A stretch of DNA of 63,436 nucleotides, filler included, from Candidatus Desantisbacteria bacterium CG1_02_49_89 (GTDB lineage Bacteria > Desantisbacteria > UBA1551), in assembly GCA_001871075.1 (NCBI GenBank). It is 5 parts of 5 records of this genome, joined end to end, with 100 filler letters (N's around TTAATTAATTAA, not from the genome) between each part and the next. Parts side by side here need not be neighbours in the genome. Positions count along the whole stretch, not along the records: positions 18,931 to 48,857 come from MNUP01000032.1; 4 more parts are not named here. The stretch is one strand, 5' to 3'. Each line of letters begins with the position of its first letter. Positions within the stretch are counted from its first letter, which is position 1. The notes below the pieces were generated by a model, which saw only the letters and a list, made by a program, of their open reading frames with translations, was not told the origin of the DNA and made no database searches. A program made the position numbers and the translations under genes. Of the stretch, positions 2,588 to 54,873 are shown piece after piece.

Positions 2588-2639
2588 GCAAACCTTCCTC
2601 CATCAAGATCGGCGGATCTACGAAAAGGTTTGTCCTATC
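2588..2639. repeat. REP-like hairpin carrying a 28-nt insert (2596-2623)
   Basis: GCAAACCT[28 nt]AAAGGTTTG versus empty GCAAACCTAAAGGTTTG at 46758-46774. Confidence 0.75.
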
Positions 2640-2729
2640 CGCCCCGATGACCATCGGGGCGAGACCTCACCCCAAAGGGGCGGGCGATAAAATTCCTTGT
2701 TGTTAATTCATAACTCATAACTCATAATT
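2638..2729. repeat. Double-hairpin CGCCC module followed by AAATTCCTTG linker and 7-mer array
   Basis: TCCGCCCCGATGACCATCGGGGCGAGACCTC...; TCATAAC/TCATAAT x3. Confidence 0.7.
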
Positions 2730-20532: not shown

Positions 20533-23487
20533 TTATTTAACCAGAAGGAGCTTCCAGGCGAAAGCCCTGAGGTTAATTGTGAATTCCTGCCCGGCCAGGG
20601 GAATTGCATCGCCTGTCAGCGCGTTTGAAACCTCAAAACCTTTTTTCAATTTCAGTTTAAGGGGATCCAGTTTTATAACTGCATCCATGGTGCTGTCGGT
20701 CAGGTTCGAGACAACGATCAAAGCTCCCTTTTCATTCCTGCTGTATATGCTCGCCTTGACCCCTTCGGGGCAGGTTATATAACCTTCGTTTTTCCAGTAT
20801 GGAAGCCACGCGCAGTCTTTCTCGCCCACGCCGAAATTTTCCTGGGCTTTCCAGACCTTGGTCACCACAGAGGTCGGGGACGGGCGGCAGGCAATGTCGT
20901 GGAGCAGGGTTATCGAAAGCGCTGCTTCAAGGCTCCATTTCCCGCCTGGATAGACCAGGAACTGTGTCGGGATCCCCCAGTTCGTTCCCATAAACTCAGC
21001 CCTGAAAGCGCCCAGGGGGAAGACCTCAAGGATCTCACTCTTGGTTTTGCACTGCGCGAGCCTTGCCTGCATCCATTCGCCGTCCCACAAAGAAGTAGCG
21101 AAGGATATCGTTGGAGCTATGACGCAGGTTGAGTTGTGCGCGTCCACGAACCCGCCGTTCTTCGTGCAGACGGCGTTCAGCCTTTTCATTATGCTGCGCA
21201 CCGCGAATATCGGGTAGGTGGTTTTGACCTTTCCGTCCTTTACGTACCCGCACCCGTGCGCGGCGTTCGCGCAATCCCATGGCTCAACTGTGCCGTCAAG
21301 ATAAACGCCGTCTATGTGGTATTTGTCGATTATGTCCTGCACTCCCTGGACTATGAAATCCTGCCAGATGCTGTTATAGCAAACGATGTAATCTACCTGG
21401 GTGGGCTTGCGCGTGTACCCGCCCTTTTTCCCGCCTCCCGCGTCCTTGCACAGGACTTCATCCCTGCAAAGGTTCCATTCCGGGGCGATGTTGGATAATT
21501 CATACCCGAAATAGACCAGGAGCTTCATTCCGAGGCGGTGACATTCGGAAACAAGGCTTTTCAGCTCTTCGGCGTGCATTTCACCGGGATAATTCTGGAT
21601 ATCCGTCCAGTGCTCGTGGAAAACTATGGTATTCACCCCGTCCTTTTTAAGCTTCGCGAGCTGTGACAGCGGGGCGGTATTGTTAGGTGTCGCGGCAGGC
21701 GGCTTTTCGATGCCGTAATTGGCGCCGTGCGCGATGCGCCAGTAGCGCCATCCTTCAGGATATTTCTTTACCGGAGTTCCCTGGAACCCGAAAGTATAGG
21801 TCAGGGGCGAATCCGCCTGCAGCGGGGTGGAAATAATGGAGATGCGCATTGTAACCATATCCTCGCCCATCTCAGCTCTTATCACGCTGTTCTCGTTCCT
21901 GTTATTCCATCCCTTGTCGGATTCCGCGAACCAGCCGAAACCGAGGTCCTCGTTCCCCAGCCAGAAGAACGGGGCGAACTGCATCGCCATGTTGTTCTTT
22001 AATTCCCCGGTATTCTTGGGCTGGCCGTTAAACGCGGGCCAGTAATTGAAAAGCGCGGCGAATTCTTTTTTGATAGGGACCAAAAGAGCAAGCTTGTCAA
22101 TGGATAGTTTTTCTTTCGGGCTCAAAGTAAGGTCTATCCTTATCATTCCGTCGTATTCTATGAGAACGTCAGCTGAAACGTCCAGAGCGCCGTATTTGCC
22201 TGACGCTTTCATTATTACCTTTGAAGGGCTTTTTGTTACCACGGCCAGGCTCTGGCCTGAAAGCGCGACCGGCTTTTTGTCTATGACAGTTTCCAGAGTT
22301 ATGGGTCCGGAGAGTATAGAGCTGCCCTGATTAATAACAGCAGAAGGCAGGAACGAGCCTGAGAAATCATATGTTCTGCCCCAGCATTTGACTTTCTGGC
22401 CGTCAATTTCCATCGGGGTCCAGGGAGCAAACACTTCATCGGTTATTCCGGCTTTTGAACCGATCCAGGGATAAACGGCAATACCGAGTTTGCTGCTTGC
22501 CTCGGTAAGAACCTTGTCTTTTTTATCAATAAGCGATGCCTTTATTTCGTATTCGCCTGCCGGAAGGTCCGCTATACCGAGTTCTGTTTCAACCCTGTAT
22601 TTCGCGTCAAACTCCTTTATCTGCCCGGTCTTCAAGATCTTCCCTTCAGGAGAAACGAGCTCCACTTTCGCTTTCAGGTCCGTAGGCTTTAAAGAGCCAA
22701 ACTCCTTTTTTGACGCTCCGAGCTTCACAACCGCGGTCTTTTTGACAAGGGGATACGGCACGACCTCCATGCTCAGGCCCGGGTACTGGATGGGCGCGAC
22801 CTTTATCTCTTTCCCTTCTTTCTTTGCGGACACCGCGTAAGCGTAGATCTTCACTTCGTCAAGGTCGCCGTTGAAATCATCCCCCCAGCTCCTGCCTATC
22901 TTTATAGGGCTGTTGTTATTAAGGTCACCTTTCGTGCTGTCCGAAGCCTCGCCTGCCTGGATGCCGTCCACATACAAATACAGTTTCCTGTTATCGCCGT
23001 CCCTCACGCCCAGGATGTGGTGCCATTTTCCGTCAGTAAGGTTCGCTGACACTATCCCTGCCATCGAGGAGCCGTCCCAGTTCCTGAAATGGATCTCTCC
23101 CCCGGCAAGCTGGTCAAAGGTAAAAGGATACGTGTTGCCTACTTTCCCGAGGAAGTGCGCGTCCGGCGCGGGCCTCTTCGAACTTTTAAACCAGAACTCG
23201 ATGGAATAGTCGTCGTTCTCACCGCCGATGTCAATGCTGTCGGAATGCGGGACCTCAACGTAATCGTTCTCTCCTCTGAAAGAAAGCGCGGAATTGCTGA
23301 CCCCGGTTATCCATCTGGCATCATGTATTGTCCCGTCATTTCCTTTACCGGAAATATCTTTTACGGTATCCCCGCTGCCCTCGTCAAAATTCCACCAGCC
23401 CCACAGTTCCTTTCCCGCCGCGCGAACCTGGCAACAGGAAGCAACGCAAAAACCGAGAACAAATAACAGCAAAACAGAGTTTTTCAT
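20533..23487 (-). CDS. Secreted LamG plus DUF6067-type putative glycoside hydrolase
   Basis: Signal peptide, GWWNFDE LamG, IEYDGMI, GFGWFAESD, IDGVYLDG, LWDGE motifs. Confidence 0.7.
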   Translation of the reverse strand: MKNSVLLLFVLGFCVASCCQVRAAGKELWGWWNFDEGSGDTVKDISGKGNDGTIHDARWITGVSNSALSFRGENDYVEVPHSDSIDIGGENDDYSIEFWFKSSKRPAPDAHFLGKVGNTYPFTFDQLAGGEIHFRNWDGSSMAGIVSANLTDGKWHHILGVRDGDNRKLYLYVDGIQAGEASDSTKGDLNNNSPIKIGRSWGDDFNGDLDEVKIYAYAVSAKKEGKEIKVAPIQYPGLSMEVVPYPLVKKTAVVKLGASKKEFGSLKPTDLKAKVELVSPEGKILKTGQIKEFDAKYRVETELGIADLPAGEYEIKASLIDKKDKVLTEASSKLGIAVYPWIGSKAGITDEVFAPWTPMEIDGQKVKCWGRTYDFSGSFLPSAVINQGSSILSGPITLETVIDKKPVALSGQSLAVVTKSPSKVIMKASGKYGALDVSADVLIEYDGMIRIDLTLSPKEKLSIDKLALLVPIKKEFAALFNYWPAFNGQPKNTGELKNNMAMQFAPFFWLGNEDLGFGWFAESDKGWNNRNENSVIRAEMGEDMVTMRISIISTPLQADSPLTYTFGFQGTPVKKYPEGWRYWRIAHGANYGIEKPPAATPNNTAPLSQLAKLKKDGVNTIVFHEHWTDIQNYPGEMHAEELKSLVSECHRLGMKLLVYFGYELSNIAPEWNLCRDEVLCKDAGGGKKGGYTRKPTQVDYIVCYNSIWQDFIVQGVQDIIDKYHIDGVYLDGTVEPWDCANAAHGCGYVKDGKVKTTYPIFAVRSIMKRLNAVCTKNGGFVDAHNSTCVIAPTISFATSLWDGEWMQARLAQCKTKSEILEVFPLGAFRAEFMGTNWGIPTQFLVYPGGKWSLEAALSITLLHDIACRPSPTSVVTKVWKAQENFGVGEKDCAWLPYWKNEGYITCPEGVKASIYSRNEKGALIVVSNLTDSTMDAVIKLDPLKLKLKKGFEVSNALTGDAIPLAGQEFTINLRAFAWKLLLVK

Positions 23488-23509: not shown

Positions 23510-23770
23510 GATTACGGTGATTTCAAAATTAACCACAGAGGCACGGAGGCACAGAGAAATACATTTTTGCCACTGTCCGCCCGTCTTTACAGCGGGCGAG
23601 ACCTCGCCCCGATGGCCATCGGGGCGGGAAGGTACTGAGATAGATTGCTTCGTTTTTACTCGCAATGACCTTTCAGTGAATTCAGTGAACTCAGTGGCTA
23701 ATTTCAGATTTTACTATGACTCTTTGACTCGGCGCCTGCCCGCCCTTGTCCGCCAATTTTTAAGGAGGAA
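23510..23770. repeat. Composite intergenic repeat cluster
   Basis: GATTACGGT, CACRGAGG and TCAGTGAA arrays; double-hairpin insert 23576-23628; GATTGCTTC..CGCAATGAC half-element; TCCGCCAATTTTTAAGGAGGA module. Confidence 0.75.
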
Positions 23771-23773
23771 ATC

Positions 23774-25183
23774 TTACTGGGCGGGACTCTCTGACTCTTT
23801 ATTTAAGCGGGCGGGCTTGATGGTCCAGGACTGCAGCTTCGCCCACCTTATGATATTCTTTCCCTCAAAGCCCTGCACGAACAGCCACTGGTCCTTGTAT
23901 TTCAGGTTTTCAAAGTCCCCTGATTTAACCGCCTGGGGATAGTTATCCGCGCTTTCGATCTTAACAGTCTTCGCCGCGGGTTTCAGCATTGCTGCCGCCA
24001 TCGACCTTATGAAGCTGCCCGGGCCTACGCGCGCGCTGCCGATCTTTATTTCAGACGGCACGCGCTTGAATCCCTTTACGTACTGATTTACTTCAGCGCA
24101 TTTCCTGAGGAACTCGGTTTTTTTAAGTTCTATCTTTCCTTTGAAATCCGGGAAATCCGAAACAGGCCCTGCTGTTTTTTGCAAAGGGATGCAGGCAGGC
24201 AGGGAACGTTTTTTAAGCAGAATCTCAAGCGCGGATGAAAAAAGGGAAAAGATCTCGGCAGGGGAAAAATATCCTTTGCCCGGTTTCGTATAACCCAACT
24301 CTTTCACCGTGCTCTCGGCAAGGGACCTCAGTTCCTTCAACGCGACCTTTTCTTTCGCGGGAAGTTTATACTGCCTGTAAAGCTCCCCGTACGTGATCAC
24401 TTCCACGCCCGGCTTCGCGAGCACCCAGTCAGTAAAATCCGTTATACCTTTTTTCAGGCTTTCAAACGCCGCCTGCGGGCGCAGGGCCGCGGGTTTCCAC
24501 GCCCACGGAGCGGTATTCCTTCCGTTGAAATTCACGCCGTCCCAGAATTCCGCCGCCACGAGCTTGCAGGGATGGGTTCCCAGGACTATCAAACCGTCAG
24601 GAAGGTTCTTTTCTTTTTCATAAATGCGCTCAAAGCCGGCCTTCATTTTTTCAAAATCGCCTGTTTCAAAGTAATCATCGAACCCAAGGTTCCAGAGGAT
24701 CCCTTCAAGCGCGGAGCAGTACCAAAGCGGCTTCAGTTTTGACAGAGAAGAAAGGAAAGTCCAGGTCATAACCGGGATCCCCATCTGGCACATCGCGTAA
24801 AGGACCTGGGGGGCGAACGAACCGCCGGGCTGCATGTACGAAGACGGGTGCTGGCCGAATATGTCCTCAACATCTTTTATCCCTTCCGCTTCCTTCCTTA
24901 TAACCTCGTTTATCCCGTCGTCCCAGTCCATCGTGTCAAGGTATTCCGGGAACGTGGGATGCACGGAATGGACGTTGGAATGGTAGTCTGCCTCGTTCCC
25001 GCTCACAAGATTAATGATGTCCCCGCGCTTCCTTGCCTTAAGTGCCCTGGCGTATTCGGCGACAACATTGAAGCATCCCCTGATCTTTCTTTCGGCAAAG
25101 AGCTTCGCCCAGAACTCCACGGCATCGTCGTGCTGCGGGGTGATGTAGTCTTCGGTATCCAGGGAAAAAATTACGCGCACCAT
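23774..25183 (-). CDS. Polysaccharide deacetylase-like (NodB-fold) protein
   Basis: FSLDTED, YHSNVHSVHP, LGTHP motifs; ATG at 25183 with GGAG SD. Confidence 0.6.
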   Translation of the reverse strand: MVRVIFSLDTEDYITPQHDDAVEFWAKLFAERKIRGCFNVVAEYARALKARKRGDIINLVSGNEADYHSNVHSVHPTFPEYLDTMDWDDGINEVIRKEAEGIKDVEDIFGQHPSSYMQPGGSFAPQVLYAMCQMGIPVMTWTFLSSLSKLKPLWYCSALEGILWNLGFDDYFETGDFEKMKAGFERIYEKEKNLPDGLIVLGTHPCKLVAAEFWDGVNFNGRNTAPWAWKPAALRPQAAFESLKKGITDFTDWVLAKPGVEVITYGELYRQYKLPAKEKVALKELRSLAESTVKELGYTKPGKGYFSPAEIFSLFSSALEILLKKRSLPACIPLQKTAGPVSDFPDFKGKIELKKTEFLRKCAEVNQYVKGFKRVPSEIKIGSARVGPGSFIRSMAAAMLKPAAKTVKIESADNYPQAVKSGDFENLKYKDQWLFVQGFEGKNIIRWAKLQSWTIKPARLNKESESPAQ

Positions 25184-25202
25184 AAAAACTCCATTCAAAA
25201 TA

Positions 25203-29592: not shown

Positions 29593-29647
29593 CCCGCCCC
29601 GATGTTGCGATGGGGCGAGGTCTCGCCCAGATTGAAATCTGGGCGGA
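29593..29647. repeat. Double-hairpin CGCCC module
   Basis: GGGCGAGGTCTCGCCC core between two hairpins, located between convergent genes. Confidence 0.75.
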
Positions 29648-33544: not shown

Positions 33545-33717
33545 AATTATGAATTATGAGTTATGAATTATGAATCAAAAGCATGGATTTTTATTGTAAC
33601 TCAGGGCTTTAGCCCTGATATCAAACCTGAAGGTTTGAGTTACACATCGTTCTCAGTGCCTTCAGTGGCTAAAGCTTGTTTCGTGCTTTCGTGATACTTT
33701 CGTGCTTTCGTGGAAAT
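33545..33717. repeat. 7-mer TTATGAR array, GTAA REP doublet and TTTCGTG 9-mer array
   Basis: The same 7-mer/linker/REP module occurs at 48424-48497. Confidence 0.8.
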
Positions 33718-33730
33718 TGTTGTTTTGGTA

Positions 33731-34798
33731 TTATGGTGTACCGAAGTCCTTTATTGCCCTGACTATCTCGGGAATGCTTGTCCTCCAGCAATCCGCAGGC
33801 ACGTTCTCGGATATCTGTATCTGCAGGCTGCCGGAATGGCCCGCTTCTTCAAGTATCTTCATAGCGTGGGCGTAAACCTCAGCGGGTTTTGAAAGGTGGA
33901 CAGAGGAAGGGAAATTGAGAAGGAGTTTCATACGGGGCCACATTTGCAGGGCTTCCGCGGCTGTTGTGTCGCCTACAGGCACGGGTGTAAACGAATCTAT
34001 GCCGCCTATCCCGGACCCGGCGATCCCGTCTTTCAGCGGTTTAAGGTTTCCGTCCAGGTGCGCGACTACAAGTGTCTTGCTTTCTGAAAGCATGCTTGCC
34101 AGCTCCCTGTAAAGAGGAACGCAATATTTGTCGAAGAACCGCGGGCCTATCGCAGGCGCCGTGATGTTGTCTATTATATCCACGAAGGGCAGGGGAACTT
34201 TTTCTGCCGCGGCCCTGACGATCCCAAATACCTGCCGCAGCTGGCCGGCAAGCATATCAACGCACTCCTGCACTACGTCAGGGAAATCGCTGAGGTGCAT
34301 GCAGAGGCTCTCAAGCCCTGTCCATTCGATCCACAGCTGCTGGTAAGGGGTGCGCCCTACCGAAACAAGAGGAAGCCCGTCGCTGCCAGCCCATTTGTCA
34401 TCCTCGAGGAACTGCGCGGTATTTTCCAGGACAACGCAGTCCTTAAGGTATTCCATGAAAATTATGTAGTCTTCCCTGGTCCGGACAAAGTGCCTTGTGA
34501 TATGCGAGCTTCCGTATGCCGGTTCGATGAGCCTTTCCTGGACAAGCGAACCCTTGGGTGTATGGATGGTAGTGACAACGCCTTTCCTTCCGTCTTTTTC
34601 AATGTCTTTTGTCTCAAACCTGCAAAGAGGGAACTCAAAGCGGTGCAGCGAGGTCCATTTCAGAATGCCCATGTTTTCCCTGCCGACCAGGTCCCAGATG
34701 TCCCGCGTCCGCGCCGCGCAGTTGTCATACTGGACAAAAGGCACGCGGTCATGCTTACGCCCCCGAAGAACGGCAAGCATCCTCTTCCGCATAGTCAT
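33731..34798 (-). CDS. URO-D family protein
   Basis: RKRMLAVLRG..HDRVP, F..YCVP.Y, HLDG, IDSFTP motifs. Confidence 0.75.
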   Translation of the reverse strand: MTMRKRMLAVLRGRKHDRVPFVQYDNCAARTRDIWDLVGRENMGILKWTSLHRFEFPLCRFETKDIEKDGRKGVVTTIHTPKGSLVQERLIEPAYGSSHITRHFVRTREDYIIFMEYLKDCVVLENTAQFLEDDKWAGSDGLPLVSVGRTPYQQLWIEWTGLESLCMHLSDFPDVVQECVDMLAGQLRQVFGIVRAAAEKVPLPFVDIIDNITAPAIGPRFFDKYCVPLYRELASMLSESKTLVVAHLDGNLKPLKDGIAGSGIGGIDSFTPVPVGDTTAAEALQMWPRMKLLLNFPSSVHLSKPAEVYAHAMKILEEAGHSGSLQIQISENVPADCWRTSIPEIVRAIKDFGTP

Positions 34799-34807
34799 AA
34801 AAACTCC

Positions 34808-35016
34808 GGTTACTCGTTACTGGTTGCTGGTTACTTGGTAAATACTGTTAAAAGTTAAAGGTTGAAGGTTAAAGGTTGGAAGCCAAACTGTGTTTACCTG
34901 TGTTTATCTGTGGTTAAAAAGCCAAGGGTTGTCTTTCTCCGTGCCTCCCCACCCTGCGCAAAGGCAGGGCGAGGTCTCGCCCCGATATCGATCAGGGCGG
35001 ATGTGTCTCCGTGGTG
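34808..35016. repeat. Tandem 7/9-mer arrays with a double-hairpin insert at 34948-35001
   Basis: GGTTACT, GGTTRAA and CTGTGTTTA arrays; the insert splits CTCCGTGCCTC^TGTGTCTCCGTGG. Confidence 0.75.
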
Positions 35017-37375: not shown

Positions 37376-37545
37376 GCGTGTCAGCGTATCAACGTGTCAA
37401 CGTGTCAACGCAAAAGCAAGGAATTTATTTTAAACTTTAGCAACAAAACATATTCTTTCGTGCTTTCGTGTTTTCCTCGCCCATCCTTTCAGGTGGGCGA
37501 AGTCTCGCCCGCTGAAAGACGGGCGGAGTGTTTTCGTGGAAATTA
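37376..37545. repeat. 8-mer array, GCAAGGAATTT linker and 52-nt double-hairpin insert (37476-37527)
   Basis: The insert is identical to 54822-54873. Confidence 0.85.
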
Positions 37546-43734: not shown

Positions 43735-44044
43735 TTAACCACGGATTCAGAGGGTAGAGTACTGAGAGTAGACCCTTTAGGGTCGTTTAAACGGGGCTAA
43801 AGCCCCTACTCCTAAAAATTTCCATGAAATCACTCCGCCCCGATGGACATCGGGGCGAGACTTCGCCCACCTGAAAGGATGGGCGAGGAAAGCACGAAAA
43901 AAATCACCACGGAGGCACGGAGACACAGAGAAATTATTGAGTTTTGCAAATGACAAACGACTAATGACTGTATTCAGCCACTGAGGGCACTGAATTCACT
44001 GAGTTACTCTGTAAACTGTGTAAACTATATAAACTTTGTAAACT
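43735..44044. repeat. Composite repeat cluster
   Basis: REP doublet 43767-43812, double hairpin 43834-43887, and CACGGAG, AATGAC, CACTGA and TGTAAAC arrays. Confidence 0.8.
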
Positions 44045-47436: not shown

Positions 47437-47530
47437 GTCATTGCGAATCCGAAGGGTGAAGCAATCTAACTACGAGATTGTCCCGAAGGGATCCCTTTGG
47501 GACTTCGTCACTGACGTTCCTCGCAATGAC
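47437..47530. repeat. GTCATTGCG...CGCAATGAC palindromic element with a 22-nt nested insert
   Basis: Terminal inverted repeats; relatives at 49561-49633 and 23643-23669. Confidence 0.8.
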
Positions 47531-54821: not shown

Positions 54822-54873
54822 CTCGCCCATCCTTTCAGGTGGGCGAAGTCTCGCCCGCTGAAAGACGGGCGGA
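54822..54873. repeat. 52-nt double-hairpin module
   Basis: Identical to 37476-37527; sits in TTCGTGCTTTC^GTGATTTCG. Confidence 0.85.

Follow-up and report, generated by a model that had tools for sequence, protein, structure and literature searches.

Small double-hairpin modules in a Candidatus Desantisbacteria genome are best read as selfish DNA of the REP-dimer kind

Introduction

Dimers of repetitive extragenic palindromes (REPs), the small dispersed repeats (SDRs) of Nostoc, the Rickettsia palindromic elements (RPEs) and miniatures of the IS200/IS605 family are the described systems with which we compared a double-hairpin unit, here named X, from the genome of Candidatus Desantisbacteria bacterium CG1_02_49_89 (GCA_001871075.1; G000). 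This metagenome-assembled genome comprises 2.48 Mb in 150 contigs at 48.9% GC and is 93.5% complete, and the sequencing runs that contain its DNA are labelled groundwater or aquifer metagenomes. The window, i.e. the whole stretch of 63,436 nt that was analysed, consists of five of its contigs (C1–C5) joined via runs of N; because the contigs are merely joined in this way, the separation of copies on different contigs is meaningless. The focal copy of X occupies positions 23576..23628. In the following, C with a number denotes a contig of G000, and L with a number a metagenome stretch.

Di Nocera et al. 2013 (PMC3733652) give as a feature of REPs a tag, GTAG or CGTC, that is left unpaired at one end of each unit, and describe REP dimers with 1–2 bp spacers, together with intragenic dimers coding for 20–30 residues, in Opitutus terrae and Wolbachia. 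Two folds of the paired form (REP doublets forming hairpins, REPINs), a long hairpin and a 'clover', are discussed by Bertels and Rainey 2011 (PMC3116915). X resembles these systems in being a short, GC-rich, palindromic, high-copy and mostly intergenic unit with the pair as its common form, and in the presence of genes for REP-associated tyrosine transposases (RAYTs) in its genome. It differs in having no GTAG or CGTC tag, in standing beside none of 14 Y1 transposase loci, and in that each half is itself palindromic in most subfamilies. The long-hairpin fold is that of the main X subfamily, and two separate hairpins are formed in 6 of the 7 window copies. The tips of X are also far more diverse (60 variants of the first arm and 70 of the second in 130 copies), and its stems are the same in hosts of 30–74% GC.

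In PMC10969869, RPEs are presented as palindromic selfish DNA of ~100–150 bp that sits in frame in unrelated housekeeping genes, adding a peptide loop without destroying the gene. X, found in 10 Pfam-recognised genes among 12 open reading frames (ORFs) examined, is alike in this behaviour only and is no member of that family: it has one third of the size, shows no sequence likeness and is mostly intergenic, and RPEs belong to Rickettsia.

The SDRs were reportedly found by Elhai and colleagues (2008) to comprise SDR1–8, of 21–27 nt, confined to Nostocaceae and located in tandem heptamer-type and other repeats; they are said to be nested, to share a two-hairpin fold with compensatory changes and to have no known enzyme, and their spread is said to have been ascribed, tentatively, to reverse transcription from RNA. 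Compared by description only, X likewise lies in tandem short repeats, is nested, folds into two hairpins and has no known enzyme, but it measures 45–76 nt and occurs in another phylum and across phyla, in contrast to the confinement of SDRs to one cyanobacterial group. Nearer to them in size is a family of 22-nt mini double hairpins in G000. Elements of the IS200/IS605 family carry a hairpin at each end, lack classical terminal inverted repeats and insert without target duplication by means of a Y1 enzyme of the HUH class. X shares the hairpin at each end and the lack of duplication (12 filled versus 19 empty sites at one locus type, 4 versus 30 at another), and G000 encodes an IS200 TnpA; however, X has no fixed tetra- or pentanucleotide on its left flank, ends at the foot of the hairpin with no room for guide bases, and is unlike the hairpins of the sole IS200 copy. 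As in a classical miniature inverted-repeat transposable element (MITE), the ends TCCGCCC/GGGCGGG are inverted repeats, yet no duplication accompanies them at non-array sites. A literature search found no account of X, which is no proof that it is unpublished.

Results

Anatomy and copy number

X consists of T-CCGCCC, a first arm (arm1), the 16-nt core GGGCGAGACCTCGCCC, a second arm (arm2) and GGGCG[G/A]-G. When G000 was searched for the core with at most two mismatches, 144 matches were obtained, 130 of which parse as a full X, with T-CCGCCC ... GGGCG[G/A]-G ends required; the other 14, chance matches or broken copies, were excluded from all later counts. The commonest lengths are 52 nt (37 copies), 54 nt (36) and 47 nt (22), and the length is divisible by three in 47 of the 130. 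Fixed in X are the stem bases (CGCCC/GGGCG) and the one-base ends, with T before CCGCCC in 125 of 130 copies and G after GGGCGR in 124, while the hairpin tips, or arms, vary with their pairing retained. The GGGCGGA end described in the original prediction is this T-CCGCCC end seen from the other strand. The two hairpins are separated by 2 nt. Single CGCCC...GGGCG matches (n = 156) are mostly background, control patterns giving ~290–360 matches, and include two or three convincing monomers; adjacent-hairpin pairs number 104, and the dimer is therefore the common unit.

Some 30 fixed bases that form two or three alternative sets of stems, combined with free tips and with no tag, duplication or linked enzyme, are unusual. 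X offers a test of the minimal sequence needed for mobile DNA, these ~30 bases having reached ~130 copies in 2.5 Mb, or about one per 19 kb.

Insertion sites

Two composite sites were found both with and without X. The first, ...CCCTGAGYTA^CRAT...TCCTTG (^, insertion point), is the foot of a GTAAC-tagged REP; it is empty in 19 cases, holds X in 12 and holds the 22-nt mini double hairpin in 7. The second, ...TTGCCMTA^CGAWA, is empty in 30 cases, filled with X and followed by the same right flank in 4, and filled in 1 more with another right flank. At both sites the filled form equals the empty form plus X exactly, with zero target duplication; the ends are thus sharper than the ambiguity of about 1 nt that had been assigned to them.

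X also splits arrays of 7-, 8- and 9-mers at a fixed position of the unit (CAC^GAAAG, CACA^GAGG, CACTG^AAGG, CCTTA^CA and GTCCA^CA). Arrays of the same kinds without X are abundant, at 62 of 75 loci for CACGAAAG, 68 of 73 for CACGGAGG, 41 of 44 for CCTTACA and 25 of 28 for GTCCACA. Presence and absence were found at orthologous positions: metagenome loci L137 and L206 carry X where C124 of G000 does not, with flank identity of 99.3–99.7%, and L231 carries X where C34 has an uninterrupted array, with flank identity of 87%. Compared with C124, the filled L137 allele has one additional 7-mer unit, which matches its neighbour at 6 of 7 bases. Contigs from four metagenome runs (X24, X22, X20 and X10) stop at the repeats, and the joint sides are short (20–38 letters) and repeat-typical.

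The 130 copies have 85 distinct flank pairs. No fixed target motif was detected among these non-redundant pairs, in which no adjacent position exceeds 50/85 for one base; CA on the right flank is common (18/85), not universal. Within subfamilies, the left flank is shared over up to ~18 nt and the right flank over ~12 nt. Relative to the flanking genes, as given by crude longest-ORF calls, 33 copies are sense, 38 antisense, 8 between convergent and 5 between divergent genes; a further 42 lie 'inside' a longest ORF, mostly near its ends, and 4 are at contig edges. This lack of orientation preference with respect to transcription speaks for a DNA element rather than for a role as RNA.

Copies within genes

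Twelve long ORFs that run through X were examined, and 10 of them were recognised by Pfam, the other two having no family. The recognised carriers are DnaE, PurL, an aconitase-family protein, a B12/radical-SAM protein, Ddl, HisF, a dihydrolipoamide-dehydrogenase-like protein (Lpd), fumarate hydratase, ThiL and a PorV-like protein. X is placed in frame within or between the Pfam domain matches, in at least five combinations of frame and orientation. Alignment of HisF with solved HisF chains covered residues 13–146 and 211–325, leaving ~62 residues in place of 2, and Ddl has ~19 extra residues relative to its solved homologues. In the one other species genome of the order used for comparison (G001), HisF (80% identical) is without the 61 residues and Ddl (63% identical) is without 18 residues. 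By adding 18–60 residues to enzymes such as HisF, Ddl, PurL and DnaE, and with assemblies breaking at every copy, X affects the annotation and protein-family models of uncultured lineages.

The 61-residue insert of hisF (C76:3345–4322, gene nt 436–636) is a nest of elements, all in frame: CAAAAGT- and AAATGTA-type arrays, a second GC hairpin element, a CCTTACA/CGTAACA array and X.

Copies in the window

The core GGGCGAGRYCTCGCCC with at most one mismatch matches the window seven times (three exact, four with one mismatch), and none of 100 dinucleotide-preserving shuffles has any match. The seven copies, with the empty arrays and the mini double hairpin, are as follows.

23576..23628, plus strand: focal X, 53 nt; TCCGCCC, arm1 GTCTTTACAGC, core GGGCGAGACCTCGCCC, arm2 CGATGGCCATCG, GGGCGGG
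2638..2684, plus strand: X, 47 nt; arm1 CGATGACCATCG, arm2 CAAAG, core variant with CTCACCC
29593..29647, minus strand: X, 55 nt; arm1 AGATTTCAATCT, arm2 CATCGCAACATCG; between convergent ORFs
34948..35001, minus strand: X, 54 nt; arm1 TGATCGATATCG, arm2 TGCCTTTGCGCA, end GGGTGGG
37476..37527, minus strand: X of the main subfamily, 52 nt; arm1 GTCTTTCAGC, core GGGCGAGACTTCGCCC, arm2 ACCTGAAAGGAT, end GGGCGAG
43834..43887, plus strand: X, reassorted form, 54 nt; arm1 CGATGGACATCG with the right half of the main subfamily, in a CACGAAAG-type array
54822..54873, minus strand: X of the main subfamily, 52 nt
33679..33716, minus strand: empty CACGAAAG array, reading TTTCCACGAAAGCAC^GAAAG... on the minus strand, i.e. 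the main-subfamily site without X
43904..43931, plus strand: empty 8-mer array CACGGAGG/CACAGAGA
43978..44003, plus strand: empty 9-mer array CACTGAGGG CACTGAATT CACTGAG, the kind of array split by the focal copy
47481..47502, strand not assigned: 22-nt mini double hairpin (TCCCGAAGGGATCCCTTTGGGA), of a family that elsewhere uses the insertion site of X

The original prediction had seen this module correctly, and its interpretation is partly supported. Its seven start positions each equal the start of X as defined by the T-CCGCCC ... GGGCG[G/A]-G ends, and its seven copies sharing the core or a one-mismatch variant were all recovered. The arm combinations it gave were also found, namely GTCTTTCAGC with ACCTGAAAGGAT at 37476 and 54822, CGATGGACATCG with ACCTGAAAGGAT at 43834 and GTCTTTACAGC with CGATGGCCATCG at 23576. 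Five of the seven copies do split arrays, as it held, but a 9-mer period applies solely to the focal copy (CACTGANNN); the other four arrays have period 8 (CACGAAAG at 37476, 43834 and 54822, CACRGAGG at 34948). The empty arrays it named exist, the one at 43978–44003 with period 9 as described and those at 33679–33716 and 43904–43931 with period 8 instead. Beyond that prediction, the modules proved to be mobile-element-like insertions that occur genome-wide, within genes and also in other phyla.

The focal copy interrupts its 9-mer array between CACTG and AAGGTACTGAG, in a 286-nt spacer between ORFs at 20533–23487 (minus strand) and 23774–25198 (minus strand), one of which is GH123-like and the other without a family. 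The copy at 2638 lies within the composite repeat ...GGTTTGTCCTA^CGATAAAATTCC, that at 34948 interrupts the 8-mer array CACGGAGA CACA^GAGG CACGGAGA, and that at 37476 is inside a CACGAAAG array at CAC^GAAAG. All seven are intergenic, mostly among glycoside-hydrolase genes.

Folding

As single-stranded DNA, the focal copy was predicted to form two hairpins at -20.8 kcal/mol (z -5.13), and none of 200 shuffles folds as well; the other strand also gives two hairpins (DNA energy -20.6 kcal/mol, z -4.6), and the RNA likewise folds into two. The two-hairpin module of the original prediction is the minimum-energy fold in 6 of the 7 window copies. The copy at 37476, computed on a stretch shifted by 1 nt, gives a single long hairpin, since the arms GTCTTTCAGC and ACCTGAAAGGAT are mutually complementary. 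Compensatory change was found in all 8 arm pairs, with both partners varying in each (30 cells), a level attained by none of 500 shuffles; the maximum in slid controls was 12 cells. At the outer four arm positions of all unique arms, 355 of 497 cells are paired, versus 135 in shuffled arms. Mismatches in the arms comprise 48 G.T versus 37 A.C, giving no strand signal.

The four stem segments can alternatively pair as an outer stem plus a central hairpin, i.e. a cloverleaf. In 16 distinct 54-nt copies, the double hairpin and the cloverleaf are each 93–97% paired, and the alignment cannot choose between them because the stems scarcely vary. Both folds are possible for X. Among 33 distinct stem quadruples, double changes that preserve adjacent pairing were seen in C63, C85:2706, C132 and C113, and these few favour the double hairpin; the end GGGCGGA, present in 5 copies, makes the outer stem perfect and favours the cloverleaf.

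Arms and their exchange

The arm variants fall into 59 clusters at edit distance 2. In the genome-wide catalogue, arm combinations are strongly associated, forming subfamilies, and yet fit no single tree. Arm1 GTCTTTCAGC (49 copies) is joined to at least six arm2 types, namely ACCTGAAAGGAT (30 copies), CGAT..ATCG types, AATCTGACTGATT and CTTTG among them, besides 7 copies with rarer ones; arm2 ACCTGAAAGGAT has two partners, GTCTTTCAGC (30) and a CGATGTCCATCG-type arm1 (4). For each of two sets of four arm types, every one of the four combinations exists. CGATGGACATCG is present at position 1 in 7 forward and 11 reversed cases and at position 2 in 3 forward cases and 1 reversed case; both orientations were also seen for CAAAG/CTTTG.

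Arm2 ACCTGAAAGGAT comes with the core variant GACTT and the end GGGCGA in 35 of 35 copies irrespective of arm1, indicating that the modules are whole hairpins with a junction within the first nine core bases. Four copies that combine a CGATGGACATCG-type arm1 with arm2 ACCTGAAAGGAT are still flanked on both sides by the main-subfamily array of CACGAAAG type, even next to the foreign arm, so reciprocal crossover between loci is unlikely. Exchange of arms between copies is real, and the exchange point is compatible with the core, as the original prediction had proposed; crossover at the core is not shown, and the reciprocal form of it between loci does not fit arms that switched while the flank was kept. 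A better fit is offered by short-patch conversion, by template switching or by repeated hits at one site. Hypermutation of the arms was considered and rejected: orthologous copies are identical despite ~2–8% divergence of the flanks, so the arms do not mutate fast in place.

Occurrence in other lineages

None of 40 other sampled genomes contains the exact core, and G001 has no core at up to two mismatches. A metagenome search with a stricter 28-base pattern gave at least 127 stretches. Among the 127 matches listed, 72 belong to the G000 population (≥95% identity over ≥250 nt), 5 to relatives, and 50 have no long match to G000; these 50 hold 39 distinct X, with flanks of 30–74% GC. They include in-frame copies in ORFs, array-like settings and a head-to-tail array of 42-nt X. 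In-frame copies were present in alcohol-dehydrogenase-like and glycerate-kinase-like ORFs, the protein names being by motif reading. In the array, carried by contigs L173 and L242 (64–65% GC), GGGCGGG is followed directly by TCCGCCC, and the frame is open throughout the available stretch.

A scan of the genome collection with the bare 16-nt core was set aside, the 116 matches listed being almost all single chance matches in GC-rich genomes; only two of them (L028 and L093) contain the full module. G041, with the record title Elusimicrobia bacterium UBA9627, has 6 copies of X and G073 has 5 sites. These are 2 of 301 sampled genomes of the phylum of G041, so the spread is patchy. That unrelated phyla contain X points either to horizontal spread or to some host activity that is widely shared. 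Filled versus empty sites could serve as strain markers for aquifer populations.

Candidate enzymes

G000 has 10 matches to PF01797 (Y1_Tnp); the six that were scanned comprise one IS200 TnpA and five RAYT-like proteins, two of the latter scoring above the NCBIfam RAYT cut-off. The hairpins that flank the only IS200 TnpA gene (C83) are CCCCGCGGCTTGCCGCGGGG rather than X, and no full-length IS200/IS605 element sharing the ends of X was found in G000. No recombinase gene adjoins any copy examined. GIY-YIG genes were considered and set aside: of 8 matches in G000, two are near long-arm relatives of X and none is near ordinary copies.

Discussion

We consider X to be tiny non-autonomous selfish DNA, like a REP dimer with a 2-nt spacer, whose folded single strands are moved by an enzyme supplied in trans, and give this a rough probability of 0.58. 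The best reading of its behaviour is that of selfish DNA of the REP-dimer, SDR or RPE kind, as reflected in its high copy number, exact duplication-free insertion, orthologous presence and absence, in-frame copies, compensatory arm change, arm reassortment and occurrence in other lineages. Movement of a folded single strand by a trans-acting HUH enzyme would be the most economical route. Such an enzyme would recognise the invariant stems and cut at the T...G ends, and the likeliest mover would be a Y1 transposase of the RAYT or IS200 type, several of which are encoded in G000; fixed stems with freely reassorting tips would provide a natural read-out of its recognition. The targets would be DNA that is often single-stranded or prone to slippage, such as 7–9-mer arrays, the foot of the GTAAC-tagged REP, the D-arm portions of dead tRNA fronts and stretches of genes that code for loops. 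Among the ~130 copies, those with identical stems may swap arms through short-patch conversion or template switching, rather than by reciprocal crossover.

Several observations weigh against this account. No X-like hairpin or core was found within ~1.5 kb of 8 Y1 loci of G000 (10 Y1 matches) or of 6 in G041, and the Y1 genes of G000 have flanking hairpins or REP arrays of their own, none of them X. One RAYT-like protein has homologues in 103 of 301 genomes of the phylum of G041, versus X in 2 of 301, so there is no signal of co-occurrence. Neither a GTAG nor a CGTC tag is present at either position in the 130 copies, the ends being T-CCGCCC / GGGCGG-G and the centre GAGACCTC, and no tetranucleotide is conserved beside X. 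The filled/empty pairs are compatible with insertion and with precise loss, and at the L137/C124 site, and that one only, the array could still hide a 7-nt duplication. No clean contig join over an X-less site was found among the contigs of the four runs, a result that is neutral on excision, and movement was not directly seen. The long-arm relatives of X that abut three tRNA-Ser genes, and stems that are letter-for-letter identical across hosts of very different GC, are possible signs of function. The data also have limits, namely a 93.5% complete genome in 150 contigs, whose unassembled part may contain a cognate RAYT gene, and the crude gene calls behind the orientation test.

A possible reading, though one we hold only tentatively, is that X represents a class of ultra-small, enzyme-free double-hairpin insertion elements common to distant, mostly uncultured phyla and moved by host activity or an unrecognised nuclease. 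If so, folded strands would move via host replication and repair or via a nuclease family not yet recognised as a transposase, the hairpin tips would be exchangeable cassettes, essential proteins would be remodelled by in-frame insertion, and X and the 22-nt family would belong to a new tier of mobile DNA below MITEs.

That X is instead a structure kept by the host appears unlikely, whether as RNA (a stabiliser, processing signal or leader) or as DNA bound by a nucleoid or topology protein, a role that has been put forward for some REPs. The compensatory changes that maintain the hairpins, the invariance of the stems across lineages, the majority of intergenic copies and the position of the long-arm relatives at the 5' end of tRNA-Ser genes speak for such a structure. 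However, X is present or absent between near-identical populations, lies in frame in 10 or more genes that Pfam recognises, with at least five frame/orientation combinations, and is carried by only 2 of 301 genomes in one phylum, with none in 40 other genomes or in the same-order relative. The reading is further opposed by the unbiased orientation to flanking genes (33 versus 38), by the lack of a strand signal in the G.T and A.C counts, by the absence, on reading, of a T-run after the hairpins, and by Rfam, which gave no match at gathering score across the whole window, the best weak match around the focal copy scoring 13.9 bits versus a cut-off of 50.

It is improbable that X is a recombination site whose 7+2+7 core (GGGCGAG AC CTCGCCC) serves as a site-specific crossover point that shuffles the arms. 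The core is indeed a perfect inverted repeat about an asymmetric dinucleotide, the halves behave as separate modules that break inside its first 9 bases, and monomers are rare compared with dimers. Yet one arm is found at both positions and in both orientations, for which crossover at the core cannot be the source; the 4 reassorted copies keep the main-subfamily flank beside the exchanged arm; copies are placed within arrays and, in frame, within genes instead of bordering cassettes; and the recombinase gene that this would call for was not found next to any copy examined.

We also find little reason to favour a scheme in which X is itself immobile and spread passively within larger composites (array plus X, or REP plus X) that were later broken by slippage or deletion. 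The shared flanks of subfamilies would follow from it, the 12 filled REP-linked sites could derive from a single insertion, and orthologous copies are stable over the ~2–8% flank divergence. Against this, 130 copies have 85 different flank pairs, X is found in many unrelated arrays, genes and tRNA fronts and has other flanks in other phyla, and filled sites equal empty sites plus X exactly at two different composites.

Least probable is spread via an RNA intermediate, by reverse transcription and insertion as reportedly suggested for Nostoc SDRs, since the SDR-like setting (tandem short repeats, nesting and a double hairpin with compensatory changes, as reported for SDRs) and the single reverse-transcriptase match in G000 are set against the partial nature of that match (a 207-residue open frame covering profile positions 100–205, near no X), the absence of a strand signal of RNA pairing and the presence of copies in both orientations relative to genes.

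Other repeats and neighbouring genes

The 22-nt mini double hairpin, TCCCGAAGGGA+TCCCTTTGGGA, gave 100 pattern matches on both strands (~50 sites), versus 2 for a reversed control. Its position at 7 REP-linked sites is exactly the GTTA^CAAT spot used by X, and an apparent hybrid of the two was seen at C135:22878. The GTAAC/GTTAC-tagged REP (TCAGGGCTNAAGCCCTGAGTTAC) is represented in G000 by 101 sites of its 10-nt 3' part CCCTGAGTTA. At C23:1824–4176, two genes for 161-residue RAYTs are flanked by arrays of the tagged REP and a second hairpin.

Different arrays and small hairpin inserts occupy one place in an 81%-identical stretch shared by L211 and C149:17900–18000, where G000 has CCCCAAAGGGACTCGTTCGAG in a CATTTTG array and the relative has X in an AGCTTT-type array. 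A repeat of ~185 bp with inverted ends (CTAGTGTGGTGTCACATAAATCCC...) lies in GATCCTG-type arrays at C53:116–300, C77:5196–5424, C100:43096–43230 and C108:143–252; it is often at contig ends and probably breaks the assembly. The window itself gave 78 Tandem Repeats Finder rows over 1–63436 (score ≥30), mainly 7–10-nt arrays found in nearly all spacers, and its genes are chiefly for glycoside hydrolases (GH123-like, GH127, GH32, GH43, GH42-like and a fucosidase).

Truncated 5' copies of tRNA genes, carrying X at GTAGCT^CA and each preceding an intact tRNA gene, were found in C122, upstream of tRNA-Thr (33766–33839), and in the unrelated metagenome contigs L198 and L233; directly upstream in L198 is a small ORF that is GIY-YIG-like by eye only. 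Three tRNA-Ser genes (GGA, GCT and TGA) are abutted by X-like elements whose arms are long (up to 27 nt) and whose end coincides exactly with the first base of the gene; such relatives are located at C81:19413–19660, C109:306–348 and C142:1110–1237, and also at C113:3773. By coordinate comparison, 6 of 7 small GIY-YIG genes are within ~500 nt of tRNA genes, and those at C81 and C142 lie within a few hundred bases of the long-arm relatives.

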